This document shows positions 6,534 through 59,136 of a stretch of 64,000 bases of DNA, piece by piece. The notes under the pieces were generated by a model. It was not told the origin of the DNA. It ran no database searches and saw nothing but the letters and a program-made list of their open reading frames with translations. Every line of letters begins with the position of its first letter. Position 1 is the first letter of the stretch. The DNA is taken from the IMG/VR virus record IMGVR_UViG_2671181136_000006, one strand, 5' to 3'. This DNA comes from a virus. Taxonomy: Duplodnaviria > Heunggongvirae > Uroviricota > Caudoviricetes. The position numbers were made by a program, and so were the translations under genes.

Positions 6534-6674
6534 AATTACACCATTAAATAATTTGTTTTCTGATTGGTGTAATTATCGCAAACTTGAAAAGGCATAAAAG
6601 CTGCATTCATAGGCGTTACAGCAGATTTAAGGCGTAAAAATGGGGGCTGTCGCCCCCTGTCGAATGGTGCTGTA

Positions 6675-7241
6675 TTAGAGTGCGTATTGCGTTTTGTGCG
6701 GCTGCTTATTCAAGTCATGGCGATGCGTAAGCTCCCGCATCATGTCTTCAAGGCGACTCTTTGTGTCGTCGAGCTGGTCGGCCATTGCACCTAAAAGCTG
6801 GCGAACGGCCATCGGATCGTCGCTGTTTAGTGATGGCATTTTAGAACCTGCTTTAGAAGACATAAGGTTGATTGCAGACATCAACATCGTTAGAGAGGAT
6901 TTAAGCCCGGCAATTTCACGATCTTTGCTGGCAATAATCGTCTCACTTTTGTTACCGTCATCAGTTTCTTGAGTCTCGCTCACCATATCCAAAGTCGCTT
7001 GCAACTTATCAGCTCTCTCTTTTTCAGCAAGGTAATGAACACCGAAATGGTGTGCCAAAGCTACAATCTGAGTTGGCTCTTCAAAGGTGGAATTAAAATT
7101 AAGTATTGTAAACAGTCTCTCAAATATGGAAACGTCTTCTATTCCTCGAAGAATGGCTAACATTTTGACCAGTTCATTAGCATCCATTTCTTCGAATAAG
7201 GCGTTTTGTTCATCAGCTATCGCTTTGCATTTCTTGCACAT
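6675..7241 (-). CDS. hypothetical protein
   Basis: 188-aa ORF with conserved upstream motif at 7261-7279. Confidence 0.4.
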   Translation of the reverse strand: MCKKCKAIADEQNALFEEMDANELVKMLAILRGIEDVSIFERLFTILNFNSTFEEPTQIVALAHHFGVHYLAEKERADKLQATLDMVSETQETDDGNKSETIIASKDREIAGLKSSLTMLMSAINLMSSKAGSKMPSLNSDDPMAVRQLLGAMADQLDDTKSRLEDMMRELTHRHDLNKQPHKTQYAL

Positions 7242-7538
7242 GTGTTTTTCCTAATACTTAAACAAGTTGTTTTCTTATTGGCTTTATTGTGATGTGGCAT
7301 AAAAGGGGAGCAAGCTAAACGTAAAGGTGCAAACTCTCTATTTCGGTCAACGAAACACAAGGGCCATTTGGCCCTTGTCATTAACACTTTGCTTTACGAA
7401 CTAACGGATAAGCGAAGTAGATCGCCAAACCAATGAGGACGCCATCAGAAATGACAGACATCATCTTTCCCGTAAAATCCACCAACACCGCCATCACCAG
7501 AAGAGCAATGACGATCACAAGCCGGAATCTCTCAAGCA

Positions 7539-7964
7539 TTAGAGATAAGCATCCAGTGACAACTGAAGCGCCTGGGCGATCTTTTTCAGTGCCTGCTCTT
7601 CTTGTTCACCAATGCCGTCCTGATCGGCAATATCAAGGCACAGACACAGAACATCGACCGCCTCTGGAGTACCCGCAATATCAGACAGCTCACGAATAGC
7701 CTGTGCATTAGCAGAACGAGGGGACGCTTCGTAACGAGCACGGATATTGGCGCTCATTTGGGCAATTTCACCAGCAAACGGAGAAAACGCAGGCAGAGCT
7801 GCAATTGTCTTCTCAAGAATGGCAATTTCTTTTGCGTCACATGTGCCGTCAGCATAGGAGATCATGTACGCGCCCCACACGGTGGCCTCAACCGCATCAC
7901 GGTTCTCCATTTTTTTGACTTCGATAACAGCTTTACGAGTTTTCTTTTTGAAGAAACCTAACAT
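7539..7964 (-). CDS. hypothetical protein, possible TerB-like domain
   Basis: 141 aa; repeated YADG / DxDG...EE helical pattern reminiscent of TerB; weak. Confidence 0.3.
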   Translation of the reverse strand: MLGFFKKKTRKAVIEVKKMENRDAVEATVWGAYMISYADGTCDAKEIAILEKTIAALPAFSPFAGEIAQMSANIRARYEASPRSANAQAIRELSDIAGTPEAVDVLCLCLDIADQDGIGEQEEQALKKIAQALQLSLDAYL

Positions 7965-8255
7965 GTGCTTTCCTTTTATTATTTGTCAAAACAAGTTGTT
8001 TTCTAATTACATAAATAGCTTACGCAGAGATGGTCAATGCATATGCACTAACAGCCGTCAGAAATAACCAAGTACCGAACCAACTGGAAAAACAAAAATC
8101 CCAACTACACGAGCCAAGGTCATGCCAGCCTGAAACTGGAGATCGCCAGAGCAAACAAGTTTTATAATGTTCGATACCCAACCGGCGGCCATAAGGGCAA
8201 GAATTGCCAGCCAAATTTTTCCAAAGTGATTTGAAAACCAGTTCATACAACCGCC

Positions 8256-8750
8256 TTAGTCACAGCATGATCCTGAGTAACTGGATGAACTTGAGGTATC
8301 GCATCCACCGCCATCCCATCCAGAGTGACAGGACGCTCCACTGGAGTGGTGGTAATTGTCGTCGACGAAGGTGTGGTGATGGATGAATCCGGCATCAAAA
8401 GGCTCTGACCGGCTGGAACGGCTACCGTCGCCAGTGAAACTATAATGAGAACGTAGGCCATTGGTTTCAGCCTCTTTCTTTGAAAATTTTCCATTCGAAC
8501 TGTCCTTGTTGTTTTTCTCCTTCACTAAAGGCCGTGCATTTTTCGCTTCGCGTGAAGAACCAGAGGCAACAATCGCCCCCACGTTCGCAACAACTGACGC
8601 TTGATTATCTAAACGTTCATTCAGCAACCGAACGGTAGTCTCTAGTTCATCAAGGCGTGACATAACCCGACCGCTAAATAATTCGGCCAAAATTTGACGT
8701 AAAGAACGAGGACGTTTAGTTACAGAAGTGAAATAGGTTTGACGTGCCAT
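8256..8750 (-). CDS. hypothetical protein (C-terminal half may be out of frame)
   Basis: 164-aa ORF; overlapping alternative-frame ORF 8243-8494 has signal-peptide-like N-terminus. Confidence 0.3.
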   Translation of the reverse strand: MARQTYFTSVTKRPRSLRQILAELFSGRVMSRLDELETTVRLLNERLDNQASVVANVGAIVASGSSREAKNARPLVKEKNNKDSSNGKFSKKEAETNGLRSHYSFTGDGSRSSRSEPFDAGFIHHHTFVDDNYHHSSGASCHSGWDGGGCDTSSSSSYSGSCCD

Positions 8751-8898
8751 GTGGACTCCATCCAGTGTCAGAAAGAGTTGCGGCTGGCGATTGCCAGCCG
8801 CCTTTCTCGTTCCATCCTGGAACTGTGTCTTACCGACACATTGTCATCCTGACGCCGATAAGATACATGATTTAAAATAATAGGTAAACACTTACTTA

Positions 8899-9489
8899 CT
8901 ATTTATTATAAACAAAACCAATATCTTTCTTGTGAGGCATATCTGCTGCTGAAAAAGCTGCGATCTTCGCGAGTCGATCACATATTTCATTTTCACGATG
9001 CCCGGCGTGACCTTTAACCCACTTCCAGCGAACATTATGTCGACTTGCGGCCTCATCCAGACGCTTCCACAGATCAACATTCTTTACTGGTTTTTTGTCA
9101 GAAGTCATCCATCCATTGCGTTTCCACCATTTCATCCACTGTGTCATGCCGTTTTTCAGATACTGGCTATCAGAGTGCAAAATAACGTTGCATGGATATT
9201 TCAAACGCTCCAGCCCGATAAGTGCCCCCATCATCTCCATGCGGTTATTGGTGGTGCTATGAAAACCATCTGAGAACTCGCGTTCCTCACCACGATACTG
9301 GAGAACGATACCGTAACCGCCCGGGCCACCCGGATTTTTAAGGCAAGAGCCATCACTAAAGATTTTCACGGTTTTAAGCTGGGGATTGAACTCTACGACA
9401 GGCGTTGTGGGATTGGTGCGGGGGGAATTTTTGTTTTTGGCTTTTTTGCGAGTTTTTGCTTGCGATCGGGCTGGTGTCTTCGTCGTCAT
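8899..9489 (-). CDS. rnhA: ribonuclease HI
   Basis: FSDGSC..NPGxGGYG...TNNRMEMMG...DSQY...KGHAGH..NE.CD motifs near-collinear with E. coli RNase HI; start set to ATG 9489 preceded by AGGAG; basic N-terminal extension. Confidence 0.9.
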
Positions 9490-10071
9490 ATAAACTCCTG
9501 AATCAAGCGCCGCGCCGATTTTTCCTCGCGCGTGCGCACACGCGTGCGTGTTAATAATTATTAAAATAAACAAATTACTTCCCAGAACAGGTTTTTATAA
9601 ACCTGAACTGAACGAACGAAGTGAGTGAAGTTCACCTCGAACGAAGTGAGAGGTTGTCTTTTCAGGTAATACTCTCCCAGGGAGGTGAGTATAAAAATCT
9701 CTCACCAACCTGGTCGTTTCATAACCTGAAAAGTTATGGTCTAAGTCTACTGCCAGCTTAGACTTGGGAAGTTATGGATGACAGCACCCCAGAACCGAGA
9801 TCTTCCCACACTTTATGAAGGGGAGTACTGGATTCAACCTCTCGAAACACCCCAGACTCGACAATCATAAAGTGACCCTTGTCTCTGCTCACTTTGGTTC
9901 CCCCTTCCCCGACACCTAAACGGCACCAGTTCTACGCTGGTAGTGAGCTTTTTTAAACCTGACGCCAGTGACGCTTACCCCCACCCATCAGGTCGAGTCT
10001 CCAGTCTACGACTGGAAACTATCAGATCTTAGCACTTACAATTCACTTTATGAATAGTTTGTACTTATCTA

Positions 10072-10326
10072 TCATTGTGATTGATTATTTTCTCTACCAT
10101 GTAGTTGAACATTCAAGGCAAACACCTCATTGATCAACTCACCTAAAAGCTGTTCAACAAGTTCGCGATGCTCGCCAAGATGCAAGCACTTAATTGCCCA
10201 TTCGTACAAGTTGAAAGCCTGCTCACGATCTTTCATCATTTCACGAGCCTGGGCCAGAAAATCGCTCTCTACGAGCGCAACGACATTAGTCGGGTATGAC
10301 ATGTTGGTTTCCTTAAAGTGGTTCAT
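10072..10326 (-). CDS. hypothetical protein
   Basis: 84-aa ORF. Confidence 0.35.
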   Translation of the reverse strand: MNHFKETNMSYPTNVVALVESDFLAQAREMMKDREQAFNLYEWAIKCLHLGEHRELVEQLLGELINEVFALNVQLHGRENNQSQ

Positions 10327-10404
10327 AAAATCGATTTTAAAGCGTCTGGTAAGGGGTTCTAGTGGATTCTGTAGTGATGTTCAGGTCTGGAGTCTCTGAT
10401 ACAA

Positions 10405-10468
10405 AGCTGCCTGCTTCCGTATATTAATAATTAATATGTAGTTATTTATATATACAGAAGCAGGCTAA
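10405..10468. repeat. about 60-bp element: 14-bp inverted arms (CCTGCTTCCGTATA) flanking AT-rich spacer; second copy at 56495-56555
   Basis: direct sequence comparison of the two loci. Confidence 0.7.
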
Positions 10469-10487
10469 TTACAGACGCCAGAACAAA

Positions 10488-11081
10488 CTAAGCAGCCTTC
10501 TTTGATGGTCTTTTTTTCCTGATCACATTCGCAGGATCATACCCTCCCAGACTTTTCATGACGTCCAAAGGGATCTTGCTTATAGAGTGCCCAGCGTCCT
10601 GACAGAATCCTCGAAAAACAACGAGCATACTGCCACCTGGGTTGATGTTTACTTCTACCTGACCCAGATTTACGTCAGGCTCGACAAACGCTACGCGGCC
10701 ACCAGACAGAATAATCGTCTCATTCGCACACTCTGTTGCACGCTCATACCACTTTGTATCTAGGGATTGAGGAATTAGCATCACTGTTGTAACTCCGCGA
10801 GCCTGCTCACGTATAGCCGCATCAATCCAGGGGTAGATTTTGGAGTAGGGTGGATTGAGGAAGGCAATTGTACCTGGCTGTCCCCATTCAGATTTCAAAG
10901 CATCACGCTCAACGCCTATGAAATTAGGCAGCTTTGCATTGTCCTTGTTGCAGGCAACGTCAACATCAAATGTCACTCCAAGATAACGTTGAATGGCAGA
11001 AAACAGCCAGTCAGGTGTTCTCCAGAGGTCACGAAGAGAGTTGTCGCGCTTTCGCTGTTTGATTTTTTCGGCTGCAATCAT
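10488..11081 (-). CDS. dam: Dam-family phage DNA N6-adenine methyltransferase
   Basis: 197 aa; NPPY motif and overall pattern of the small phage Dam MTase family. Confidence 0.7.
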   Translation of the reverse strand: MIAAEKIKQRKRDNSLRDLWRTPDWLFSAIQRYLGVTFDVDVACNKDNAKLPNFIGVERDALKSEWGQPGTIAFLNPPYSKIYPWIDAAIREQARGVTTVMLIPQSLDTKWYERATECANETIILSGGRVAFVEPDVNLGQVEVNINPGGSMLVVFRGFCQDAGHSISKIPLDVMKSLGGYDPANVIRKKRPSKKAA

Positions 11082-11264
11082 CTTCTTTCTCGATAGGTAA
11101 GTATATACCTATTTTTGCATTTGATTTTATGTCTGGCAATCAAATAAAACGCGCCAGAAATGCAAACGAGAAGCTCTCTGGCGCGTTTTTGTGGTGCTGG
11201 GTATGTGATTGGCTTACCCAGTACTATAAAGCTCTCTATGGGCTTTATTTTAAGTAGGGGAACG

Positions 11265-12074: not shown

Positions 12075-12190
12075 GTAAGTCTCCTTCTGTTTGGTTACAT
12101 TTGCGTTTCGATGGCTGCATTTTGACTAAACCTATCAGGCGGAAAAGTATTAAATACAGGCAGGAAATGATTGAAAGGCGACTGTTCTTT

Positions 12191-12232
12191 AAAAAAAAGC
12201 CTACTTTAAACTTTTTAAAGTAGGCTTTTGTT
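12191..12232 (-). terminator. rho-independent terminator (minus-strand sense)
   Basis: AGCCTACTTTAAA / TTTAAAGTAGGCT hairpin followed by T-run on minus strand. Confidence 0.55.
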
Positions 12233-18177: not shown

Positions 18178-18283
18178 GTGTTTTTCCTTTTTCTTTTTTG
18201 GTGCGTTTAAACAAGTTGTTATCTTATGTGTTTAAACAAGGCTTACAAATCAAAGAGAAGGTGGGGATATCCCCCACCATATG

Positions 18284-20599: not shown

Positions 20600-20672
20600 G
20601 TATCACCAAATAAAGAGGGCCACTAAATATAGTGGCCCATGTTAATAGATAAGTACTTACCTATCAATGAAA

Positions 20673-25216: not shown

Positions 25217-25470
25217 GTGTTTTTCCTTTGTGGTTATTTTGATACAAATTTTAAGAGCAATGAGAAGGTAAACAACTATGCATAACGGTATGTTAGGAAT
25301 GAAACGAGCGTCTTAATATACAAAATTTATAAGTAAGTATATACCTATTTATTGTGGCGCAACTTTGCTTGTCTGTATGACTAAAAATAAGACAGGATCA
25401 CTGTAGAACGCTATGAGAGCTATTTTGAGGAGGCGTAGATTCTATCTACGCCAATATACGATCTGGAGGG

Positions 25471-28834: not shown

Positions 28835-28873
28835 GATAGGTAGATACTAACTTATATAAACTTTACTGTAAAC

Positions 28874-29691: not shown

Positions 29692-30081
29692 TCACTCCGA
29701 TACAAGACGTTTATATGCTTCGATGTCTCGACGTGCTTCACCGAGTTTTCTTCTTAGGTCCATATTTTCTGATTCAAGTTTTTCAATGTTTTTTTGGTAT
29801 CGGCCACGATGTTCTTCCCAGGCATCCTGATATGCCTTCATATATGTCGTATTAGCCTTTCTTTTTGCCTGACGAACCGCGTGGTGATTTTCTACAAACC
29901 AGTCAGGGTCGTTAAATGCTGCTCTTGCGCATTTATACCAATAATCGGTTGACTCTCTGTTTAACCAATGAATGGTGATAAATGGTAATCGAATAGACAG
30001 AATTTTTCGTTTGGAATCTCGCTCACCAAACATATGCCCTTTTTTTATCTTTAAACCGAACCCAGGTTGAATTAAAAGCAT
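29692..30081 (-). CDS. hypothetical protein
   Basis: 129-aa ORF. Confidence 0.35.
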   Translation of the reverse strand: MLLIQPGFGLKIKKGHMFGERDSKRKILSIRLPFITIHWLNRESTDYWYKCARAAFNDPDWFVENHHAVRQAKRKANTTYMKAYQDAWEEHRGRYQKNIEKLESENMDLRRKLGEARRDIEAYKRLVSE

Positions 30082-30101
30082 TGTCAGTACCTCAGATGCA
30101 T

Positions 30102-30842
30102 TTATGGCAGTAATTCTTTACCGCTTTCCATTTTGGTGATAGAGACAGTAGGATCATCGTTAATGCATGATTCTGTGCCTAATGCTGCTAACCCTTTACG
30201 CATAACCGTGCCCGCAACATACGCCTCAATCTCCGCCTTTCCAGATGAGACAATTTCATCCATTTGTTCCTGCATTAATTCGGTAGCAAAGCACAGATTT
30301 TCAGGAAGGTTAGCTACAGCAGATGCTAGTTTTCTATATAGTTCTTCAAGGTCACGTTTTCCAGCTCTTCCTTTTTTTACAAGTTCACCTAGCTCTGAAA
30401 CTTGCTGATTAAGTCGATCAATCTCACTATTCGTAGCGGCCTTTATTTGATCGTTGAATTTTTGCCGAATACTTTTTTGCTCGGCAATATCATGAACTCT
30501 AATTGAGTCTCCAATGGTTTTATATGAAATAGTGCATGGCACACCTTCGCCCACTCCAAAACTGCTAACCATAGCAGCCCATTGTGCCTGGCTAAGTCTA
30601 ATTTCAACTAAAGGCCGTCTATTGCAACTTCTTTGTGGGCGGGTTCGTTCATTGTCTAAGGACAGTTCCGCCTCGTAAACGCCTATTTCAATATAGTCTC
30701 TATGTTCCAGTTCTGAATCAAATAGGCGAATGCCAGTTGTGCTAACACGGCTTGTTTTCACAAGACCGAACGCTGGATGTGTTTGAATTTTTTCCCCATG
30801 TTTATTAAGGGTCGTTTTTGGTTCTTCAATTTTTCTTTTCAT
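30102..30842 (-). CDS. hypothetical protein
   Basis: 246-aa ORF. Confidence 0.4.
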   Translation of the reverse strand: MKRKIEEPKTTLNKHGEKIQTHPAFGLVKTSRVSTTGIRLFDSELEHRDYIEIGVYEAELSLDNERTRPQRSCNRRPLVEIRLSQAQWAAMVSSFGVGEGVPCTISYKTIGDSIRVHDIAEQKSIRQKFNDQIKAATNSEIDRLNQQVSELGELVKKGRAGKRDLEELYRKLASAVANLPENLCFATELMQEQMDEIVSSGKAEIEAYVAGTVMRKGLAALGTESCINDDPTVSITKMESGKELLP

Positions 30843-30888
30843 CTTATTAACCTCTATGCTTCATGCGTAAAGCTAAATGACAATTTTT

Positions 30889-31713
30889 TTAATATCCGGC
30901 GTATTCGTATTCTTCATTTAGACCGTATTCTTGTGGAGTGATACCAGGACAACATAACTCAAAGGCGAACTTGCGCCATTTGATTTTTTCTTCTGACGAT
31001 TGTTTGTTATTCGCCGGTGCAATGTAGTCATATTCCCATTTGCCGTTGCGAAGTAAAATGAATCCGCAGTTATTGCCGAAGTCTTCGTCTGCATAACGTA
31101 TTACAAACTCAAGGTGCGGGAACTTTCTAGCCATCGCTTGATAAATTGGTTTTGGCATAGACCAGGCTGTTTCAAAGCGAATCACCAACTCACCACCAGT
31201 TGCGGCATGTCTTGCAAGACGTTTTTTATAGATTCGTTTTGCATATGCTCGAACGTGTGTATGGCGGAAATTATGGCCGTACTTAATACGTGTAGGGATA
31301 CGTTTTACGGGCATTTCGATGTTGTAGGCATTCCATTTTGTTCCCCAATTAGCTCGCGACCAGTCAAACCATGAGTAATAGCCATAGCGACGATAATTCT
31401 CAAGCCGCATAAGAGCCTGCTCTTTGATTTTGCGAATTTCCTTGCGTGTCATTCCTGATTCACGCATAGCTAATTCGACCTGTTCTGGAGTCTTTAATTC
31501 ACCGAACATGTGGTCGTAAACTGTTTCGCCCGCCATTGCAGAGGCCATGCGCCTGATATGATTGTTTTCTTCCATTTCTATACTTTTCGGACGTCTGCAA
31601 ATGGTATTAAAGTCAATTAGACCTTTTTTGTTAGTTATGGCACGTATGAAATCTAAGCGTTGTTTATTTGTACCACCTATGACTCGGATTTCGTTTGTAA
31701 TGTGGTTGGGCAT
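30889..31713 (-). CDS. hypothetical protein
   Basis: 274 aa; W/Y-rich central motif WFDWSRANWGTKWNAY, family not recognised. Confidence 0.4.
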   Translation of the reverse strand: MPNHITNEIRVIGGTNKQRLDFIRAITNKKGLIDFNTICRRPKSIEMEENNHIRRMASAMAGETVYDHMFGELKTPEQVELAMRESGMTRKEIRKIKEQALMRLENYRRYGYYSWFDWSRANWGTKWNAYNIEMPVKRIPTRIKYGHNFRHTHVRAYAKRIYKKRLARHAATGGELVIRFETAWSMPKPIYQAMARKFPHLEFVIRYADEDFGNNCGFILLRNGKWEYDYIAPANNKQSSEEKIKWRKFAFELCCPGITPQEYGLNEEYEYAGY

Positions 31714-31764
31714 AATTAACTTAACCTTTTAACAAATTGTTTTCTTGTGTGTGATAATAACGAG

Positions 31765-32843: not shown

Positions 32844-32904
32844 GTGTTTTCCTATGTGGTTGTTATGCGAAAATAATAAGTAAGTACTTATATATTTTCA
32901 AGAG

Positions 32905-35282: not shown

Positions 35283-36311
35283 TTACAGAGAGTCCAGCTC
35301 TCTCAGTAGGTCATCCAGACCTTCATCTTCCGTCGCAGATGCGGCTGCTACAGATGTCGCTGCGACTGCTTCAGACTCTTTGACTGATACTGCAACGGCA
35401 GCGGGACTTGCTTCTGGTTTAAATTCAGTTTCAACGGCACGGAGGATTTCTTCATCAACCAGACTGGTTGGTTCAGAAGCTGGGGTATGAGCGGTAGCTA
35501 CAGCAGTCGCACCCTCCGTATGACCAGTGACAGAGCCAAATCCAGGTAGTGCCGCAGCCGATGTTTTCGCGGTTGAGGAAATTGCTGGTGCAGATGCTGC
35601 GGCAGTTGGTGCAGCGATGCCAATCAGACGACCCATAGTGCGAACTGTCGACAGAAGACGAGTTTCATCAGCCTGATTTGCGTATGCGATCAGATCATGC
35701 TGGGTATTCCAGAATTTATCTTCGATATCGCCTTTGTAGACTTTACGCTTAGGCGAGACGTCATATTTGGTATCGCGACCAGAGCCAGTACGTTTAATCA
35801 GGAATGCGTAGCCTTCCTCTTTGCTCAGTGGATTGCCGATATCATCAGCGATGTCTTCGGTGATTGCTTTGCAGATATCATCGAATACAGTAGACGGCAG
35901 CTCGATTAACTGGCATTTCTCAGCATCTGCGAAATCCTCACGAGCAGAAAGAATGCCGTTGACCAGGTAGCGAGGAGTGGCACGCATTTGACCGATGCGT
36001 TCTTCCATTGCTTTGTTACCCTTGTGACGAGCGCGACCTTCCATCACCATTTCGCATAGCTGACAAGCGCGACCGTGAGTATGTTGCTCACAAATATAAG
36101 CGTTGGTTGCTTCTTTACCTTCCTCGTTCTGATACTTAACGTAGTGCATACCGAAAGTCTGGAAGAACTTACCGTTTGGGTCGTCTTTATTCGGGAAGAT
36201 GCGGATATAGTTGACGCCGTCTTTTAAGCGAGTCAGATCAACGTTGTTACCACGTTTGGCGGCAATGTCTTCACGAGTTTTGTTAAGCAAATCAAGTAAT
36301 GTCTTAGACAT
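35283..36311 (-). CDS. putative ssDNA-binding protein
   Basis: C-x2-H...C-x2-C zinc-like cluster (CEQHTHGRACQLC), Ala/Ser-rich linker, acidic C-terminal tail EDEGLDDLLRELDSL. Confidence 0.45.
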   Translation of the reverse strand: MSKTLLDLLNKTREDIAAKRGNNVDLTRLKDGVNYIRIFPNKDDPNGKFFQTFGMHYVKYQNEEGKEATNAYICEQHTHGRACQLCEMVMEGRARHKGNKAMEERIGQMRATPRYLVNGILSAREDFADAEKCQLIELPSTVFDDICKAITEDIADDIGNPLSKEEGYAFLIKRTGSGRDTKYDVSPKRKVYKGDIEDKFWNTQHDLIAYANQADETRLLSTVRTMGRLIGIAAPTAAASAPAISSTAKTSAAALPGFGSVTGHTEGATAVATAHTPASEPTSLVDEEILRAVETEFKPEASPAAVAVSVKESEAVAATSVAAASATEDEGLDDLLRELDSL

Positions 36312-36428
36312 GTGTTTCTCCTTGTTGTGATTTGGCCGATGGCGCTATGCGCGTTGGGCTTTCGTTCATTCGTGGCTCTTTCGAGCTGTTAAATGATAGA
36401 TCAGTACTTACTTATTATCTATCAAAAA

Positions 36429-44124: not shown

Positions 44125-44222
44125 GGCTAATCCTTTGTTATGAAAACAAATTATTTACTAGTGTGTTTAATGTAGCACTGCGCGAACAGGGAACTAAGCC
44201 ATTCGCGCAGGGAGAAGAGGGG

Positions 44223-44612: not shown

Positions 44613-44657
44613 TTTACAACCCTAACCTTTGATGTAATATCGGTAAGCACTTACCAG
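44613..44657 (+). promoter_or_regulatory. sigma70-like promoter (TTTACA-16-TAATAT) with palindromic operator CGGTAAGCACTTACCAG just downstream
   Basis: -35 at 44613-44618, -10 at 44635-44640, palindrome 44641-44657 belongs to the dispersed GGTAAG..CTTACC family. Confidence 0.55.
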
Positions 44658-44686
44658 TGAGAATTGAACGCGCAAAGGTTGTAACA

Positions 44687-45073
44687 ATGTCTGACAACAA
44701 GATTGAATTTATAGAAAGTCGCTATGCTGCTTTTATCGCAGGGCTGATTGAATCCTCACCTATGAGTCAGGCCCAAATAGCCAGACTTATTGGTTATAAA
44801 AATGCCAACAACCTTTCTTTAATTAAAAGTGGCAAAATTCCTTTGCCTATCGATAAGGTTCGTCCGTTGGCGCTGGCGCTGGGTATTGAGCCAAGTCGTC
44901 TTATGATGATGGTGCTGGAAGAACGCCAACCTGAACTCGCAGCATTTTTATACAAAGAAGGCACCGCTCCTCTTAACGAGGACGAAAAACAGGTTCTTGC
45001 TGCATATAACGAGCGATTCGGTAAAGAGAAAGGCGCATCACAAAAGGTTGTTGAGGCTATAAAGTCTCTATGA
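44687..45073 (+). CDS. HTH DNA-binding protein (XRE-like), candidate repressor
   Basis: SQAQIARLIGYKNANNLSLIKSG helix-turn-helix pattern; start set to MSDNK (ORF track starts 44657). Confidence 0.5.
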   Translation: MSDNKIEFIESRYAAFIAGLIESSPMSQAQIARLIGYKNANNLSLIKSGKIPLPIDKVRPLALALGIEPSRLMMMVLEERQPELAAFLYKEGTAPLNEDEKQVLAAYNERFGKEKGASQKVVEAIKSL

Positions 45074-46171: not shown

Positions 46172-46269
46172 ATGACAATCACCGAGTTACGCCGATTCAC
46201 TGTATAAGTAAACAGTATATTAGGCATAGATTCTTATAGGATCAAGAGTAAAAGTAACTCATTTTCACT

Positions 46270-46438: not shown

Positions 46439-46993
46439 ATGCACTTGCATAAGTTGGTTACACCTGGTTTGGCTTCATTGCCGGGTGATCTGTCATATTT
46501 AGATATAGACTTTGTTTTCTCTGGCAATGAAGCTCGTAAGGCTAGATACCGTTTAGTCTTTTGCCCTCCTTCTTTAGATCCTGTTGCCGCAGAAACTATG
46601 CATAATATGTTAGGTGCTGATGTTTATGGGTTGTGTGTATCTGTCGTTAGTTTTGTGGACATGATTCAACTTGACAGGCAGCAAGAACAGCTCCAGAATG
46701 TCGCTCTTGGAGCGGAAGAGCCAATTAACGTATTTGCCAAACCCGAAGGGTCTTTTAATCTTACTTTAGGTGAACTTCAATACCTTTACGGTACTTTAGT
46801 TGACTTAATGCTCAAAGTTGCCGACAATGAAGGCATACAGATTTTATTCTTTGCGGCAGAACGCGAAGAACTGATGGCCACATACAAGAGATATGTGAAG
46901 AGATTTACACAAGAGCGTGGCCTAACTTATTTAAATGACGGAGCTTCCTATGCGATACGAACACAACACTACCCAAAACAAAGGGAAGATTGA
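46439..46993 (+). CDS. hypothetical protein
   Basis: 184-aa ORF after AT-rich region. Confidence 0.4.
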   Translation: MHLHKLVTPGLASLPGDLSYLDIDFVFSGNEARKARYRLVFCPPSLDPVAAETMHNMLGADVYGLCVSVVSFVDMIQLDRQQEQLQNVALGAEEPINVFAKPEGSFNLTLGELQYLYGTLVDLMLKVADNEGIQILFFAAEREELMATYKRYVKRFTQERGLTYLNDGASYAIRTQHYPKQRED

Positions 46994-48690: not shown

Positions 48691-49468
48691 AATTCAGCAC
48701 TGCCAGTATTTATTACTCAACAGTGCCAATCGCGACGGTTTAGTTTCTGCCAGGAAACGCACCGCTACTTGCACTTTTCGTTAGTGCCAGACGCTTTCGA
48801 CTTCGCTCAATAGTAGAAGGCAAAATCTTTAAGTAGATGATGTTTCTGAGGACAGCACCTACTTTGTAATTTATACAATGTGATGTATGGAATCATTTGT
48901 TGTGAAAACAGGCACCAATGGCAACAGTGGTTAAACCTACACAACAATCCTGTCTTCACAACGTTGAGGCCACTACTCCGATTGAATGTTTGCCCAACAT
49001 GTTACATATCAACGCTCGCCGGTATCTCTGTGAATAGAACCTTAGAATTGATAAAAATGTAATGGCCTCAACGTTATGTGCTGGCTAACCATACCAGCCG
49101 GGCTACGTCGCCGCTTTTTAACCCAGTATAAACGACATAATTGAACAAAATGACGTAACAGGATGGGCGGTCAGTGGCTAAGAATCCGGGAGTCATATGG
49201 AGTTGAAAATATACCAACCGCCCATTCTGTTACTTCATCGGAGGGAACATGAATGTTCCCTCCTGCGTTCTGCAATCACACTCGCTCAGTGTGTCCCATT
49301 TCGGTAACGAGGCTGGAAACTGACCTCGCTGGTGTTTGGCTTATTAGGCTACTGCCAGATAGACTTCTTCGTTTGCACTTGTATTTAAGTTCAAACAGTC
49401 GCGTCTCAACGAAAACAAAGTCATCTTATACACAAAAGATAAGTAAGTAAATACTTATCAATATGTTT

Positions 49469-52081: not shown

Positions 52082-52136
52082 AAATAATCTTGTACTTACC
52101 TATCGTTATTTGCGTAAAAAACGACGCGCGGAGAGA

Positions 52137-52919: not shown

Positions 52920-52994
52920 ACCAACTCCTAGCTAACAGATGAAAGTATTCTCACAGAAAGATAAGTAATCATCTACTTATTTTAAAGGTGATTG

Positions 52995-54176
52995 TTATGA
53001 TAGAGCCTTAATGCCCAAAACCTTGCTTTGCAACTCCAACTGTTTGGTATACGGTTTTGCCCGATAATAGGCTTTGATGATTTGCTCTGGCGTTGCATCG
53101 CCCGGGTCGAGTCCTTCCTCGCCCAAACACGCCACTTTGACATTAAGACCAATACTGGTCAGTCGCCTGGCTGCGGCCATCGTGTTGCGTATAGCTTGCT
53201 TTTCACTATCCCACATCATGATCACATTACGTAATCCACGCGCCTTGAGCGTCAGGAACGCGCCCAACTGATCTTCTGCATCCTGAGTGGTGTTGCCAGA
53301 TAGATGCATCCCGAACGTTCCTATTGGCTCCACGTAATCACGTAATGTTTCTTCGTCGAAAATAGCTCGTTTGACCCCCATAACATCGAACGCACCCTCA
53401 CAGACAACTACAGTCTGTTTGCCGACTGCATTATGGCCGTTGTAGAGAAATTTACCTGAAGCTGGAAGTTGCATAGGAAAGAGGTAGCGGCGTTCTGCTG
53501 TACCGGTAATGTCTCGTCCCTGAAATGTCTTCATTACCCCATCCAGATCGTAAACCGGTATCAGTATTCGCATATCGAATATCTGTCCTTTAACCTGATC
53601 TGTATACGGATCTACATAGGCGTGCTTGCCTTCGACGCAGTATCGTAGGTCAAAATACTTTGCCATTTCAGGCGATATGTTTCGTTCAACCAGATAGTCT
53701 GGAAGACGGCCATCTATAGGAAGCTCGTAATGACGAGGGAGTGCAACTGGCTCCTCTAACTCGACTGTGCTTGCAAGCACTAGCTCTTCTTTCTTTGGTG
53801 CCCACCCCTGGGAAAGAAGGGCGTTCTGCACATATTCCTCGAACTGTCGTCGTGATTTGCCGCTGTAGTGCTTGAGGAAGACCAGCTTATTGAACTGAAT
53901 CTCTTCGGGATGATCACCAGCGAAGCATTTACCGACGCCACTGGTCAGATTGAAATATACCTTCCAGTTGGAGCTGCCACATACCGGACACTCCTTGATA
54001 TTCACTTCACGACCGCGAGTACTCACGCCTCCACGTCGATAAACGATACCTTCAGTATCCAACCATTGTTCAAAATCTAATTCGGTAATTAGCTCTTTCA
54101 GCTCGCTCACGATAATTCCACTTTTAACAGGCAATATTGTGACCAACCTAAATGTTGATATAACATAAAGGCTCAT
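52995..54176 (-). CDS. DNA primase (zinc-ribbon + Toprim)
   Basis: CPVCGSS...C zinc ribbon, Toprim VVVCEGAFDVMG; start set to internal ATG 54176 which has the conserved upstream motif. Confidence 0.65.
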   Translation of the reverse strand: MSLYVISTFRLVTILPVKSGIIVSELKELITELDFEQWLDTEGIVYRRGGVSTRGREVNIKECPVCGSSNWKVYFNLTSGVGKCFAGDHPEEIQFNKLVFLKHYSGKSRRQFEEYVQNALLSQGWAPKKEELVLASTVELEEPVALPRHYELPIDGRLPDYLVERNISPEMAKYFDLRYCVEGKHAYVDPYTDQVKGQIFDMRILIPVYDLDGVMKTFQGRDITGTAERRYLFPMQLPASGKFLYNGHNAVGKQTVVVCEGAFDVMGVKRAIFDEETLRDYVEPIGTFGMHLSGNTTQDAEDQLGAFLTLKARGLRNVIMMWDSEKQAIRNTMAAARRLTSIGLNVKVACLGEEGLDPGDATPEQIIKAYYRAKPYTKQLELQSKVLGIKALS

Positions 54177-54257
54177 GTGTTTTTCTTTTGTGGTTTGGCA
54201 AAAGAAAAGTTGTTTCACCAATGAATCAAGCGTGGAGGTGTTCTCCACGCTTATTTT

Positions 54258-55598
54258 TTAGGTAACGTCTAAGATTCGCTCAATGAAGCGCATTTGTTCG
54301 AGGTTTTGTTTAACGCGAATGCTGATCCCTCCCTGCTGGTTACGTGAACCAGCAAAGTAGAGACGAGCCTCTCCTTTCGCTTCTTCTTCTTCGGTTTTGT
54401 TGATCGTTATTACCAGGTCAGCAATACGTACTTTTTCGATGTTGTCGGCAGCGTGCATCATTGTGGCAACTTCTGACGCGCCACCTTCACGGTTTGTCTG
54501 CGATGCCGTGATCCCAGCAACGTTATGCTTGTCATAAAGAGCACGTAAATCGGTGTAGATACTACGAATGTTGGCGCGATCATCACGAAGGTCATAACTG
54601 GCACGCATCAAATCTGCGTAGTCGACAACAACCATGTCAGGCACCATGCCATTGGCTTTCATACTGTTAAGCATACGGTCCAGATCTGCCGGTGACATAC
54701 TTCCTGACGGACGCTCAACAACCCACAAACTACCAATCCCCTTCGTGGCTCCCAACTCTGCCAACTTACGATGAACCTCATCGCGCCGTTCCACCAGCTT
54801 GGACATTTCTGTCTCCGACAATCTTGCATCAAAACGGTCGGATAAAATGGTGGTGTGAACCTCCAGCGAGAGATACAGAACATTGTAGCCAGCAAGCGTT
54901 GCGTTTATGGAAAACTCACCCATTGCGGTCGATTTACCGGATTTAGCGAACCCCATGAAGAGCACCATTTCGCGCTTTGCCCAGCCTTTTTGGTACAGCA
55001 ACCTATCGAGAAGAGGGAGTCCAGTTGTAATACTGTTTGGTACATACTCCTCTGAAGCCTCATATTCACGCGCTTTCAATCGCTCACTTGCGGAGGTGTA
55101 GTAGTCATAGATTCCGGTCGCTTCGTTCGATCCAATCTGCTGAACCTTGGCCATGATTGCCATCGCCCCCTGAAAGTCGCCTTTCTCTTTCAGTTCAGCA
55201 GCCTTAATCAGAGCATCATCAAACGCTACACTTTTTGCGAAGGTTGATACCTGGTCAACCATGTACGAGGTATCGGACAATTTTTCTGCAAGAATGCGCT
55301 TAAACGCAGCAACAACATCGGCGAATAGTTCCTCACGGATAGTCTTATCGCGTTTCGCACGCTTAAGCATATCCAGAATTGCAGATGAAGAGGGCGCGCT
55401 CTTGTACATACGGTAATAGCCCGAAACCATATTAACCAATATGGCATTGGCCGCATTGGCAAACTGGCTAGGCACAACCAGATCTCCCGCACGAGTAAGA
55501 AACTCGTGATCACGACAAAAATATGCCGTCAGTCTGTTCTGGAAATCTTCATCAAACTCTTCGGACAGCCCGCGTCCTGTATGGCAAAGTTCGGTCAT
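54258..55598 (-). CDS. DnaB-like replicative helicase
   Basis: Walker A GFAKSGKST, Walker B VVVDYADLM, RecA-like core in C-terminal half. Confidence 0.75.
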   Translation of the reverse strand: MTELCHTGRGLSEEFDEDFQNRLTAYFCRDHEFLTRAGDLVVPSQFANAANAILVNMVSGYYRMYKSAPSSSAILDMLKRAKRDKTIREELFADVVAAFKRILAEKLSDTSYMVDQVSTFAKSVAFDDALIKAAELKEKGDFQGAMAIMAKVQQIGSNEATGIYDYYTSASERLKAREYEASEEYVPNSITTGLPLLDRLLYQKGWAKREMVLFMGFAKSGKSTAMGEFSINATLAGYNVLYLSLEVHTTILSDRFDARLSETEMSKLVERRDEVHRKLAELGATKGIGSLWVVERPSGSMSPADLDRMLNSMKANGMVPDMVVVDYADLMRASYDLRDDRANIRSIYTDLRALYDKHNVAGITASQTNREGGASEVATMMHAADNIEKVRIADLVITINKTEEEEAKGEARLYFAGSRNQQGGISIRVKQNLEQMRFIERILDVT

Positions 55599-55641
55599 GT
55601 GCTTTCCTTTGTTTTTTAAACAAATTGTTTTCTAGTATTAG

Positions 55642-56391
55642 TTAATTAGATAGGGGATCAATAAACCGCCGTGCTTCTTCCAGTTCTTCTGGAAAGTGGG
55701 CGGAAATAAGGCGCTCTGGAACGATTTCCATTAGCCAGATAGCGGAGAAAATTGCGCGTATGCGCTTGCTGCGAGGGATGGTGCGCAAACGCTCCAGAAT
55801 CCACTCAAAATAGCTTTCCTGAATCGGGTTGAACTGCATGTCTCCCATATGCTTAAAGCTAACCAGAGAGTCATCCAGACGGGTTGTTGCGCGTCTGGCT
55901 AATTTCTCTTCAAATATCTCAATCAGTTCTGGCTGCCATAAATGCTGTGGGCGCGGCAGCTTGTCCCACAGCCGTCGTGCAGCTGCGGAAAGAACGGTGG
56001 AGATAAAGTAGTCGTATGAGCAGCAATAGCGGTCAGCAAACTGGCGTGCTTTCCATAGAGACGTTTTATTGGCAGTCGACAACTCCTGATAAGGCAGGCG
56101 TTTTAACCCGGTGGTGAACGGAGCTGTTTCAAAGTGTTCGCGACCGTGCGTCAGCATGATATTTGAGTACTGACGTTTGTATGCCTCCGTAAACAGACAG
56201 GTGGCCATAAGAGGATGCATGTCGCGGTAATCAAACCACTTCGTCTCGAAGAGTTCAGCCTCATCTTTACAGCGCGACAAACCAATGTTTTCAGCGACCC
56301 ACTTGTCCATAACAGCGGTATTCCACTCTGTCATGAAGTCGTACTGGTCGTTGTCGATGGTATCGAAAAAGATTTGGCTCATGTGGCTCAC
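55642..56391 (-). CDS. hypothetical protein
   Basis: 249-aa ORF. Confidence 0.4.
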   Translation of the reverse strand: MSHMSQIFFDTIDNDQYDFMTEWNTAVMDKWVAENIGLSRCKDEAELFETKWFDYRDMHPLMATCLFTEAYKRQYSNIMLTHGREHFETAPFTTGLKRLPYQELSTANKTSLWKARQFADRYCCSYDYFISTVLSAAARRLWDKLPRPQHLWQPELIEIFEEKLARRATTRLDDSLVSFKHMGDMQFNPIQESYFEWILERLRTIPRSKRIRAIFSAIWLMEIVPERLISAHFPEELEEARRFIDPLSN

Positions 56392-56494
56392 CCGGTAGGT
56401 AGTTACTTACTTATCACAATGAGCGGATGATAGCGACTGGTGGCAGTTTTTGGAAGTGAAAACGGAAGGGAGTTGTTCTGGTGGTGTCTTTTAA

Positions 56495-56555
56495 AAGACC
56501 TGCTTCCGTATATATTTAATAAGTTACTTATTATTTATATACAGAAACAGGCTCC
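56495..56555. repeat. second copy of about 60-bp inverted-arm element (see 10405-10468)
   Basis: CCTGCTTCCGTATAT...TATACAGAAACAGG in divergent intergenic region. Confidence 0.7.
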
Positions 56556-56656
56556 TAATGGATACCAAGAACAACATAATTTGACTCCAACCCCAGATGC
56601 TATGTCATTGACAGATTTATCAAGGGAGATCATGTTAGAATCAGTGTTTTAGCCTC

Positions 56657-57730
56657 GTGGATATTGTCACCATGCGCATGAATAGACTTCCAGGATATGG
56701 CCTTCCCGAACTGGCTTTTTGGCCTCAGCCTAAATATGAACGGAATAAATGGTCGATGTTCTGTCTGAAACTCCGTAATGATGGAACCCTTGCTTGGTAT
56801 CGGCGATATGTTGATCGTGGTATGCCAAACCACGCTTTTGATGACGACTACGATAACTATCCTGAAGCAAGAAAAGCGGCATTAGAGCTGAATAAAAACG
56901 TGAGCTTTGACATTGAAAAACTTCCTCTATCTATGTTTCAAAAGAAGTCATTGCGTTTGAAAGTTGACAAAGCACTCAAAGCCAAATCACGTCTCATGGA
57001 TGAAGAGCATATAATGCTCAACGAAGCAATTAAGGCACACGCCAACGATCCGCGAGTGACATTAAATGAGTTAATAATTAACCCAGATTACGAAACTTTG
57101 CGTCAACCCCTTTTTGACGTGCTAAGCGAGATGCCTTACTTACATTTTGTTTTTCTTCCCAAATTCCAAGTTTCACTTCAACTCGTTGCTCCTAACACTT
57201 GGGAATGTTCATATAACAACAAAGCTAAGACAGCGAAGATCTGCTACCAAGAACGCATAGCCAGAGGTTTTGGTTTATCAGGTGCTGCACATTGGGGAAA
57301 AACAAAAGCGACTATTCGCTCAATGCTTCTGCCGCGTGCTAACCGGTTACTGCAACTCGCCAGCGTAAAAAGAATGCTGGATGAAGCTCTCAGGAATGGG
57401 CAAAAGGTACTGGTTGTTGGCAACTTTGTTTTCTGGTTTGAGGACAAAAATCAGGTAGGTTGGAGTGTTAAAGTTGCTAGCGAAAGCGAAACCACCTCAA
57501 GAGGCAATACGCTCTGGAAAGAAGGAACTATCATTTCAAAAAATCACGGTCGAATTGTCGTGCTGCCGTATACAAAAGAAAACGGTAAACATGTAAAAGG
57601 TTATACCAAGAATGCCCCTAACGACGGCAACGCAATTCCGAGACATAAGGATGAGTATGTCGAGTTGCCCTTTGAAATTTTGGATGGTGACTTGATGTTC
57701 AGTCTGTTCGGTGAGCTTAACTACGAATAG
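56657..57730 (+). CDS. hypothetical protein
   Basis: 357-aa ORF. Confidence 0.4.
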   Translation: MDIVTMRMNRLPGYGLPELAFWPQPKYERNKWSMFCLKLRNDGTLAWYRRYVDRGMPNHAFDDDYDNYPEARKAALELNKNVSFDIEKLPLSMFQKKSLRLKVDKALKAKSRLMDEEHIMLNEAIKAHANDPRVTLNELIINPDYETLRQPLFDVLSEMPYLHFVFLPKFQVSLQLVAPNTWECSYNNKAKTAKICYQERIARGFGLSGAAHWGKTKATIRSMLLPRANRLLQLASVKRMLDEALRNGQKVLVVGNFVFWFEDKNQVGWSVKVASESETTSRGNTLWKEGTIISKNHGRIVVLPYTKENGKHVKGYTKNAPNDGNAIPRHKDEYVELPFEILDGDLMFSLFGELNYE

Positions 57731-57790
57731 CTTTCATAGAACGAAATATTTCTAAGGCTGTCCAATGCAGACCAGCCTTAGAGATTTATA

Positions 57791-58150
57791 TCAACCTTTC
57801 TTCATTAACTCGCGTTTAATTTCATCGGTACGCATCGTGACATCGGCAGCGGTGATCGCCTCATTCAATTTCACGATGTCCTCGATTTCCTGCGGTGACT
57901 TCTCTGCCAGATGGAAAATGGCTGCTCGAATCACGTCAGAACGAGTGAACTTCTCGAAGCGAGGGATGAACTTCATCATCTCCAGCAGTTCGAAGTATTC
58001 GTCCTCCAGTGACATTGTGCGGCTTTTAATTTTCTCTTTGCCACGAGTCGGGCGTCCCTGTGGTCTGACTGGTTGGCGCAAAGGAGTTGTGTTCTTAGCC
58101 GGTGCATCAGGCTCTTTGCGCTTTGCTAGGTCACCCATTTTCATGGACAT
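57791..58150 (-). CDS. small basic DNA-binding partition protein (ParG/RHH-like), candidate centromere-binding protein
   Basis: 119 aa, basic disordered N-terminus, directly downstream of and overlapping parA stop. Confidence 0.45.
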   Translation of the reverse strand: MSMKMGDLAKRKEPDAPAKNTTPLRQPVRPQGRPTRGKEKIKSRTMSLEDEYFELLEMMKFIPRFEKFTRSDVIRAAIFHLAEKSPQEIEDIVKLNEAITAADVTMRTDEIKRELMKKG

Positions 58151-58818
58151 TATTCTTCTTCCTCCAGACTCAACAGATAATCTACAAATTCTTCAAACTC
58201 GGCTTCCGCCTTTTTGTCGCGCTCGCTACCGGTCATTTCAAAGATAGAACGACCAGACTCTTCCGCATCATCATAGACGTTGCGGTTATATAGATTGACT
58301 GGCGCAGACTCGATTCCAAACGTCTCAACAATCTCTTTAGCCGCCAGAATGCGAGACACTTGTGATGGCAAAGCCGGGCACTGGTTCATGACCGCGCGGA
58401 CCTTCACTTTATCGTTTACATTGCGAACATTGTCGATAATAGGATCGATGTCACGTAAAGATTTCAAATCACGACGCTTAGGACGCAGCGGGATAATGAT
58501 AACGTCAGCCATCAGCATCGCTTGTCGCTGAATTTCGGAGTCGAAGCCACCAGCATCTACCACTACAAACTCAGCTCTACCCTGAAGCGATTTTAGGTGC
58601 TTAATGATGTCATCCTGAACGTATGCAAAAGGAATCAGCTCAAGGTCTTCGTTCTGTCGACGGTCTTCACACCAGCTCGTTGTCGTGCGCTGAATATCTA
58701 TATCGGTAATATAAACCTTCTTCTTCTTTTTGACTTTCAGGCAAACGGCAATTTGCTGGGCAACGGTGGATTTGCCAGGCCCGCCCTTTGTGCCGCCAAC
58801 CACAAAGATCTTGGTCAT
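58150..58818 (-). CDS. parA: ParA/Soj-family partition ATPase (small type Ib)
   Basis: deviant Walker A GGTKGGPGKST, 222 aa. Confidence 0.85.
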   Translation of the reverse strand: MTKIFVVGGTKGGPGKSTVAQQIAVCLKVKKKKKVYITDIDIQRTTTSWCEDRRQNEDLELIPFAYVQDDIIKHLKSLQGRAEFVVVDAGGFDSEIQRQAMLMADVIIIPLRPKRRDLKSLRDIDPIIDNVRNVNDKVKVRAVMNQCPALPSQVSRILAAKEIVETFGIESAPVNLYNRNVYDDAEESGRSIFEMTGSERDKKAEAEFEEFVDYLLSLEEEE

Positions 58819-59136
58819 TGGAGAGTTCCCTTTGCGTATATAATTATCGTCTGAAACAACTTGTTTTCTTATATGTGATATAGCCTAAATGCCTACGGCT
58901 GCGGTGTAAAGGTTAAATGGTAGGTTGTGATTAACAATTGGCAAACATAGCTTGTATTTGTCTGTTGAAAAAAGTAACAATGACCTCTATATTACAAGTA
59001 CGGTGATATGCCGTACACAATTTGATAATGCACACGTAATGGGCTATAGCCTTTTAAAGTAATTTTTGAGTCGAAAACTCAGTTTGAACAGAGGAGATTG
59101 ATGGCCTTCCTACATCACGGCCATCAGGAGGAATAC

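Follow-up and report, generated by a model that had tools for sequence, protein, structure and literature searches.

What does one short palindrome do upstream of so many genes of a single phage-plasmid? The stretch that raises this question, hereafter the window, is 64,000 nucleotides (nt) of the IMG/VR virus record IMGVR_UViG_2671181136_000006 and constitutes the replication, DNA-metabolism and maintenance half of an SSU5-like Escherichia coli phage-plasmid. Its identity is 98–99.8% with Escherichia phage Cyrano (pLF82) and CMS-2020a, and falls to about 77% with Salmonella phage SSU5 and several Klebsiella phage-plasmids. The element encodes many T4-like replication and recombination genes, and 737 plasmid records in PLSDB match the window from 52 to 59.5 kb. 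Phage-plasmids of the SSU5 type are frequent in Escherichia, Klebsiella, Salmonella and Enterobacter, and they can carry antibiotic-resistance genes. An initial annotation, made from the letters of the window, had listed the palindrome at eight genes and had offered a second regulon, a promoter class or a translational operator as explanations; a literature search on the motif sequence and on transcriptional control in SSU5-type elements returned no description. We favour, with about even confidence, the reading that the motif is the operator of a dimeric transcription factor encoded by the element, most likely a repressor, and that its copies bracket sigma-70 promoters in a dispersed regulon.

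A palindrome repeated between genes

Nearly all genes of the window lie on the minus strand, so the AACAAGTTGTTTTCT first read on the plus strand corresponds to AGAAAACAA-N-TTGTT on the gene strand. The motif has the consensus (A)GAAAACAA-N-TTGTTT(AA), with 9–10 matching sites in the window. Its core is a 13-base palindrome, AAACAA-N-TTGTTT, with six symmetric positions per side and an unconstrained central base, set in conserved flanks (rAAAACAA-N-TTGTTTAaGG). Every site is intergenic, and the asymmetric arm is oriented with the downstream gene. At up to one mismatch, AACAAGTTGTT matched 13 times against 2.0 expected from dinucleotide shuffles; at up to two mismatches, GAAAACAANTTGTTT gave 14 strand hits at nine loci, all of them intergenic, where a first-order Markov model of the intergenic sequence itself (14% of the window) predicted 0.25. 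The shuffles and the intergenic control rule out an origin by chance or base composition. The concern raised at the outset, that AT-richness could account for the motif, does not apply, since the excess is measured against the intergenic sequence itself. As expected of a dispersed prophage-repressor operator, a specific site is thus repeated at many intergenic positions far above chance.

A position weight matrix (PWM) built from seven confirmed sites of the initial annotation scored 30–36 bits at centres 6552, 7266, 7995, 18215, 31736, 55624 and 58860. Seven of the eight sites originally listed are true matches; the eighth, at the primase gene (54201–54220), has only a conserved left half-site. 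The matrix also picked three weaker sites that the list lacked, centred at 3593 (3585–3602), at its inverted partner 3644 (3635–3652) and at 44150 (44142–44159).

The motif recurs in relatives. In SSU5 it stands at the orthologous parA, helicase, cobT, nrdB, hyp87, DUF4942 and HD-domain (orf213) genes, and a dozen more sites lie in the accessory-gene region outside the equivalent of the window, giving about 20 in total. Cyrano has about 16 motif loci, none within its 29-kb structural block. Scanning IMG/VR for exact matches to AGAAAACAANTTGTTTAA yielded 120 stretches, mostly on 90–112-kb contigs that align to the window; these stretches, the window and SSU5 together supplied 105 non-redundant contexts of 160 nt. 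Alignments anchored on the start codon, which had been suggested as a check, bore out positional conservation among orthologous regions: an 18-mer is invariant while the neighbouring 20–40 nt diverge at the helicase, hyp87, DUF4942 (17 non-redundant regions), parA (12 non-redundant regions), nrdB, cobT and TciA genes. The site at the parA promoter is conserved in those 12 relatives and in six GTDB loci. The right half of the DUF4942 site has been lost in some E. coli lineages, including Cyrano. By contrast with the 18-mer itself, the distance to the start codon, which had been described as fixed, varies: it runs from 11 to 42 nt (centre to ATG) in the window and from 9 to 67 nt in the 105 contexts, with modes at 19 and 26–29 nt.

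Predicted promoter units and individual sites

In the non-redundant contexts, the motif proved to be the downstream part of a larger unit with the consensus CCtTAAACAA-N-TTGTTTTcTGCCTttt-N-TtatTTGcGATAATAAcaacAAyAAGAAAACAA-N-TTGTTTAAgga...ATG. A −10-type hexamer (A at position 2, T at position 6 and at least four of six matches to TATAAT) lies exactly at −25 to −20 from the motif centre in 41 of the 105 contexts, against about two per offset elsewhere. TG occupies the extended −10 position in 29 of the 41, and 25 of the hexamers are GATAAT. This is the sigma-70 extended −10 pattern, TGn plus a TAnnnT-type hexamer at a constant position, and it is represented in the window by TGCGATAAT, TGTGAAAAT and TGCTACATT. 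A second palindrome lies exactly 51 base pairs (bp) upstream in 14 of the 105 contexts, with essentially no other offset represented at up to three mismatches in 12. This upstream copy is inverted, and its consensus, aAGGCAgAAAACAA-N-tTGTTTAaGG, matches the downstream copy; the same 51-bp pairing occurs in SSU5, at 35608/35659 and 38325/38376. When the hexamer is taken as −12 to −7, the predicted start falls on a conserved A, the downstream motif has its centre near +14, and the upstream copy, with its centre near −38, covers the −35 position. Canonical units have no good −35 hexamer and carry a conserved GCCTTTT at about −27 to −22. At the other window sites with a credible predicted promoter, the motif centre lies at +12 to +16, and at the helicase gene it lies at +4. 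The earlier idea of a promoter class therefore survives in part: the motif adjoins or follows sigma-70-type promoters but is itself neither a −35 nor a −10 element. Treating it as a −35 element with a −10 downstream was rejected: the sole match, at TciA (TAGAAA-16-AATAAT), is fortuitous and would place the start inside the ribosome-binding site.

Under the operator reading, roughly ten transcription units of the window would begin with such a site, and Cyrano as a whole would have about 16 such loci and SSU5 about 20. A canonical unit would then consist of two inverted operators, one covering the −35 region and the other just ahead of the ribosome-binding site, on either side of an extended −10 promoter, TTGnGATAAT, whose −35 is poor. 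Because 51 bp between centres is about five helical turns, two bound dimers would face the same side of the DNA, where they could occlude or clamp the promoter; many promoters would retain the downstream copy alone, at +4 to +18. As long as the element persists as a plasmid-prophage, repression of this kind would hold down genes for DNA metabolism and anti-restriction together with small accessory genes. Positions from +4 to +18 and over the −35 region are those typically used for repression, and the combination of a dyad with a free centre, locations on or just past the predicted start site, a variable promoter offset and a phased copy over the −35 region argues for an operator rather than a polymerase element or an RNA signal. 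From this arrangement we infer the transcription starts, the binding of a protein and the direction of regulation alike.

An RNA signal nevertheless deserves consideration. As an element of the 5′ leader, the motif could enhance translation or act as a translational operator, recognised by a small RNA or by an RNA-binding protein (FljA-family or RegA-like). With the predicted starts, most copies would be transcribed and would lie directly upstream of the Shine–Dalgarno sequence, which the AU-rich right half, TTGTTTAAGGAG, adjoins; the element also encodes a full-length FljA-family protein (PF03614), and Salmonella FljA has been reported to block fliC translation (PMC2652032). However, dyad symmetry with a free centre is of no use in single-stranded RNA, and the hairpin that the motif could form is negligible (0 to −1.8 kcal/mol, with z-scores of −0.96 to +1.08 for the predicted leaders against shuffles). 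The second copy, at −51 from the first, lies upstream of the −10 element, the predicted start of the helicase gene falls inside the motif, and the distance from the 3′ edge of the motif to the Shine–Dalgarno sequence or ATG varies from 2 to 33 nt. Neither the fliC leader nor the region upstream of the FljA-like gene resembles the motif (best PWM score, −0.2). These features speak against the translational operator that had been proposed, and we consider any RNA-level role highly unlikely. An Rfam search found no family at the motif and only three tRNAs; with neither a stable hairpin nor an Rfam match there, we also rejected an intrinsic terminator or structured RNA family.

The regularity of the unit could, in principle, reflect the spread of a promoter cassette by modular exchange (PeSL-like, as in T4-type phages), with no dedicated binding protein. 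A unit of about 75 bp, comprising hairpin, inverted copy, promoter, motif and ribosome-binding site, is indeed repeated before many small accessory genes, and one gene block (29692–31713) has been inserted precisely at the junction of such a unit with the gene that follows it in Cyrano. Yet the 18-mer does not vary between genera where orthologous positions are compared, although the remainder of the unit does, and many sites, including those of the helicase, parA and nrdB genes, consist of the palindrome alone beside unrelated promoters. The invariant 18-mer and the palindrome-only sites point to selection on the palindrome itself, leaving passive spread a very remote explanation.

The individual sites of the window, all on the minus strand unless noted, match the canonical unit to different degrees. 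A terminator hairpin precedes most of them, which places them at the starts of transcription units. The perfect site, AGAAAACAACTTGTTTAA (7258–7275; PWM 36.3), belongs to a gene for a 188-amino-acid (aa) Cys-rich hypothetical protein (CYRAN_87/SSU5_094 family, hyp87); its centre is 25 nt from the ATG, a predicted −10, CACAAT (7286–7291), stands at the canonical offset, and the site is unchanged in six non-redundant orthologous upstream regions. AGAAAACAAATTATTTAA (6544–6561; PWM 30.1), with one core mismatch, precedes the gene for a 561-aa DUF4942 protein, annotated as a methyltransferase in SSU5. Its extended −10, TGCGATAAT (6572–6580, hexamer 6572–6577), is at the canonical offset, and distant orthologues, among the 17 non-redundant orthologous regions, also bear the upstream inverted copy. 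The TciA/TerB-like gene has AGAAAACAACTTGTTTTG (7987–8004; PWM 31.9) with its centre 31 nt from the ATG, and the core AAACAAyTTGTT is retained in distant relatives despite differing flanks.

The full two-copy unit is found at the HD-domain phosphohydrolase gene (orf213, 2941–3582; ATG at 3582), the sole promoter of the window with a recognisable upstream copy. Here the downstream copy is a half-site, CTAGAAAACAAC (3585–3602), whose right half is the GGAG ribosome-binding site of the gene, an arrangement that is identical in SSU5 and in IMG/VR relatives. The inverted upstream copy, GGAAAACAATTTATTTAA (3635–3652, plus strand), is centred 51 bp upstream of the 3593 site and adjoins a terminator hairpin (3651–3671), and the extended −10, TGTGAAAAT (hexamer 3613–3618, minus strand), lies between the two. 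At the CobT-like gene, the left half of AGTAAATAATTTGTTTTC (44142–44159) is degenerate, whereas its SSU5 orthologue matches in full; TGCTACATT (hexamer 44169–44174) is the extended −10 and stands at the canonical offset.

The helicase site, AGAAAACAATTTGTTTAA (55616–55633; PWM 34.1), at a DnaB-like gene, abuts the predicted promoter TTGATC-16-AATACT (−10 at 55634–55639), which puts its centre at about +4; relatives differ in the sequence of the −10 (TAGTAT, TAGCAT and TACGAT) but not in its position, and the motif is invariant. At AGAAAACAAGTTGTTTCA (58852–58869; PWM 32.2), which serves parA and an overlapping gene for a 119-aa protein, the centre lies at about +16 from the predicted promoter TTTACA-17-TAGGCT (−10 at 58882–58887). 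AGATAACAACTTGTTTAA (18207–18224; PWM 34.4) precedes nrdB, follows a terminator hairpin and is centred 38 nt from the ATG. The duplication noted there consists of this full site and an extra half-copy, CCTTGTTTAAAC (18231–18241), a TTGTTTAAAC half about 20 bp upstream of the full site on the gene strand; SSU5 keeps this arrangement. At the primase gene, the weak half-site GGTGAAACAACTTTTCTT (54201–54218; PWM below 12) follows a terminator hairpin; its left half, GA(A/G)AACAA, is conserved and its right half, TTTTCT, is no match.

The gene for a 274-aa DUF1281_C protein (orf274) has AGAAAACAATTTGTTAAA (31728–31745; PWM 34.5) at +12 from the predicted promoter TTGGAC-16-TATTAT (−10 at 31754–31759), directly after a terminator hairpin. 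This gene belongs to the block 29692–31713 (orf274, orf246 and orf129), three genes that are absent from Cyrano; their insertion exactly between the motif-bearing promoter and CYRAN_58, the gene it precedes in Cyrano, indicates that promoter units mark gene-module junctions. Outside the window, the terS leader of Cyrano (1–135) has two motif copies in tandem at a spacing of 25 bp; between them and the terS ribosome-binding site lies a GC-rich hairpin with a T-run. The late operon of Cyrano may combine the motif operator with terminator or antiterminator control.

Silence in the lysogen and parallels with known regulons

RNA sequencing of the LF82 lysogen (supplementary S1 table of PMC9928086) provides expression values for the genes behind the motif, with a background (median) of 9.8 normalised reads. 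Twelve of 13 first genes are at or near background, the exception being parA. The values reported for first genes are 7.1 (CYRAN_1), 21 (CYRAN_32), 7.8 (CYRAN_47), 12.9 (CYRAN_70), 7.0 (CYRAN_85), 7.1 (CYRAN_87), 6.3 (CYRAN_93), 7.5 (CYRAN_101), 12.8 (CYRAN_105), 12.2 (CYRAN_106), 6.7 (CYRAN_110) and 25.5 (CYRAN_111) (PMC9928086). Nearly all of these genes are silent despite near-consensus extended −10 elements. Promoters of the TGnGATAAT type are normally active without a −35.

Silence could also mean that an activator is missing. The palindrome, the GCCTTTT box or both might define a 'middle'-type promoter class to which a phage activator or sigma-appropriation factor recruits RNA polymerase. 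The canonical units, with an extended −10 and no recognisable −35, an upstream copy over the −35 position at about −38 and GCCTTTT at about −27 to −22, would suit such a class; the genes are silent in the lysogen even where the downstream site has decayed, and the element has many replication and recombination genes of T4-like kind. MotA and AsiA at T4 middle promoters and Lpa at P1 late promoters are activator parallels, and T4 middle promoters likewise have an extended −10 and, instead of a −35, a non-canonical upstream element, in both cases at DNA-metabolism genes of T4-like ancestry. But the best-conserved and commonest copy here is the downstream one, at +4 to +18, and activator action from downstream of the start is very rare; orf213 is alone among window promoters in having a recognisable upstream copy. 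Moreover, the offset from motif to −10 is not constant among promoters, several sites have adequate −35 hexamers (TTGATC, TTTACA and TTGGAC), and the extended −10 should not need activation. The MotA box is an upstream element, while the dyad here has its main copy past the start, and Pfam scans, which covered part of the proteome, detected no MotA, AsiA or sigma-like protein. We regard activation as a serious rival to the operator reading, albeit an unlikely one.

Several observations weigh against the operator reading. Every promoter position is a prediction from sequence, and for TciA, nrdB and primase no convincing sigma-70 promoter was found upstream. A generic −35/−10 scan misses the canonical units (5 found against 9.8 expected), and only the analysis anchored on the motif revealed their extended −10; together with the lack of a good −35, this makes dependence on an activator possible. 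Although the parA operon has a good site, it is expressed in the lysogen (50/89/55). Conversely, CYRAN_90 (7.8) and CYRAN_93 (6.3), which keep the extended −10 while the downstream site is decayed or replaced, are silent, so silence is possible even when the downstream site is no longer intact; the upstream copy, another silencer or a lack of activation may account for it. Finally, Pfam and PHROG scans of about 40 proteins yielded no clear candidate for the binding protein.

We know of no host transcription-factor site with this half-site and spacing among those of KdgR, FNR, CRP, IHF, PhoP, Fur and others. The closest systems, by analogy, appear to be the C1 operators of P1, the stoperators of L5, the KorB and KorA sites of RK2 and the omega sites of pSM19035. 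Dispersion, intergenic position, orientation, predicted overlap with promoters and targets that are mostly silent are shared with these; the palindromic 6-1-6 site and the regular cassette of two operators 51 bp apart around an extended −10 set the present system apart. P1, like the element studied here, is a phage-plasmid, and its C1 repressor has more than 15 operators dispersed over the genome. In both plasmid-prophages, one short site recurs at many promoters, overlapping or just downstream of sigma-70 promoters (predicted ones in the present element), and genes for replication (a DnaB-type helicase in both), for DNA methylation and for accessory functions are among those concerned. The P1 operator, however, is an asymmetric 17-mer, ATTGCTCTAATAAATTT, rather than a 6-1-6 dyad; no C1 homologue was seen here, and the 51-bp pairing around an extended −10 is not the P1 layout.

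The stoperators bound by gp71 of L5 (cluster A) are 13-bp sites, about 20–30 per genome, that silence lytic genes in the lysogen. They resemble the present sites in their 13-bp length, their position in short intergenic regions and their consistent orientation to transcription, but they lack symmetry and mainly block elongation within operons, whereas the sites here are palindromic and stand at promoters that follow terminators. The RK2 operators of KorB (OB) and KorA (OA) and the omega sites share their form with the present site, a 13-bp palindrome with a single central base at about a dozen plasmid promoters, and one OB class lies at about −39/−40, near the −38 of the upstream copy here. 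In RK2 and pSM19035, the regulator is also the centromere-binding partner of a ParA ATPase. The present element likewise has a palindromic site at the par operon promoter and at many others, with a highly conserved small gene overlapping parA; unlike in those plasmids, no evidence ties the ParA partner to the motif.

The analysis supplies a defined candidate operator, a promoter cassette and a gene list that comprises helicase and primase, nrdB, parA, the DUF4942 methyltransferase-like gene, small accessory genes and, outside the window, the terS leader. With these, the regulator can be sought, reporters for the switch from plasmid to lytic growth can be built, and early transcription units can be annotated across hundreds of related plasmids. 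If the operator reading is right, a single site dispersed over a plasmid-prophage would once more define a regulon, in this case with two operators arranged with unusual regularity, and would offer an entry point to lysis–lysogeny control in a clinically common phage-plasmid family.

Candidate binding proteins and neighbouring features

One candidate, reminiscent of the RK2 and pSM19035 regulators, is the 119-aa product of the gene next to parA (57791–58150, minus strand), which overlaps the parA stop codon. It is annotated as 'RelE/ParE' in Cyrano, and has no such domain; SSU5 annotates an N-terminally truncated version, SSU5_034, with which it shares 98% identity over the annotated 96 residues and, by tblastn, 93% over all 120. 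Members of the family occur in SSU5-like plasmids only. A pattern that follows a basic tail, KSRTMSxEDE...FTRSDVIRAAI, is invariant across members of 48–100% identity, and by its sequence the protein looks like a ribbon-helix-helix, centromere-binding partner of ParA. Its operon bears the motif and is expressed in the lysogen. The ParB-domain proteins of the element are not expressed there. The protein could bind the palindrome both as a partition component and as a global silencer of lytic and early promoters, a proposal that we regard as distinctly unlikely; if true, it would couple plasmid segregation to the lysis–lysogeny state through about 20 paired operators. Searches by sequence, profile and fold did not bear out a ribbon-helix-helix fold: they returned no sequence match in Pfam or the PDB and no Foldseek match, the AlphaFold monomer has a pLDDT of 64, and no ParB or KorB domain was found. 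With no members below about 48% identity and an invariant motif throughout, the family leaves no co-variation to test. The densest 160-nt cluster of ACAA/TTGT tetramers in the window, upstream of parA (8 against a mean of 1.55), was rejected as a centromere, as it is not conserved in SSU5.

Three other proteins were excluded as the conserved binder, namely the accessory helix-turn-helix (HTH) repressor (44687–45073), the integrase and the product of the highly expressed gene at 46439–46993, because the 100 kb of SSU5 examined has no homologue of any of them and yet keeps the motif. The FljA-family regulator, by contrast, is conserved and full-length (CYRAN_114/SSU5_121; PF03614, E = 1e-80). 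It was rejected on other grounds: the E. coli fliC leader contains nothing motif-like (best PWM score as above, with at least four mismatches in the 12 core positions), nor does the region upstream of its own gene. That gene, annotated as 'repressor of phase-1 flagellin', lies outside the window (Cyrano 100780–101301; SSU5 96897–97343), and the SSU5-like phage-plasmids that have it carry no flagellin gene. The protein could affect host motility or act as a regulator of the element.

A separate 20-bp palindrome, ATAGGTAAGTACTTACCTAT, occupies at least 13 other intergenic sites of the window, and at up to five mismatches it matched 14 times against 0.1 expected. None of its sites overlaps an AAACAA-N-TTGTTT site, and both sets are conserved in SSU5, which upholds the initial view that the motif defines a second regulon distinct from this first set. 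The ATAGGTAAGTACTTACCTAT sites lie at 4829–4848, 8880–8899, 11093–11112, 20645–20664, 25329–25348, 28836–28855, 32876–32895, 36396–36415, 44639–44658, 49439–49462, 52084–52103 and 56395–56414, upstream of Ead, dam, nrdA, sbcD, SSB, hyp31, hyp35 and the accessory repressor gene. In Cyrano and SSU5, they also occur inside the structural-gene block. As RNA, ATAGGTAAGTACTTACCTAT could form an 8-bp hairpin with a GUAC loop, which makes a role in RNA processing or stability no less possible than one as operator or promoter.

The ribosome-binding context that the motif genes were said to share is real but not specific to them. RRAWRCACATG, or AAAGGAAA(A/G)CACATG, has 13 matches against 0.96 expected, all on the minus strand and 12 at start codons. 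The context (AACCACA)AAGGAAA(A/G)CAC-ATG is near-identical at these 12 minus-strand starts, with ATGs at 4786, 7241, 7964, 18177, 25216, 29149, 32843, 36311, 36860, 40504, 54176 and 55598. Since it is common to at least seven motif-less genes (PolIII alpha, SSB, UvsY, SbcD, Ead and others) and missing from three motif genes, we treat it as a separate feature, independent of both palindrome classes. One of these starts, ATG 54176, is in frame with and 22 codons upstream of the primase start annotated at 54110 in Cyrano and SSU5. This ATG stands in the conserved AAAAGAAAAACAC-ATG context and is itself kept in relatives, and the primase gene probably starts there, on the minus strand.

Two further parts of the window stand out. 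The last 3 kb (60980–63766) has a GC content of 53%, against 46%, and contains two large open reading frames (ORFs) without counterpart at that position of the Cyrano map, where they replace the holin and tail-fibre end; this segment is probably an insertion. At 46439–46993 (plus strand) lies the 184-aa gene CYRAN_43, which has no Pfam match and about 7000 normalised reads in the LF82 lysogen, against the median of 9.8, by far the highest expression on the element; the region may hide an abundant RNA. Between this gene and the divergent integrase gene is the only LexA-box-like sequence of the window, TACTGTTTACTTATACAGT (46199–46217; 0.03 expected), and a perfect LexA box precedes the S24-peptidase gene CYRAN_98, outside the window. 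These LexA boxes fit the reported induction of Cyrano by ciprofloxacin.

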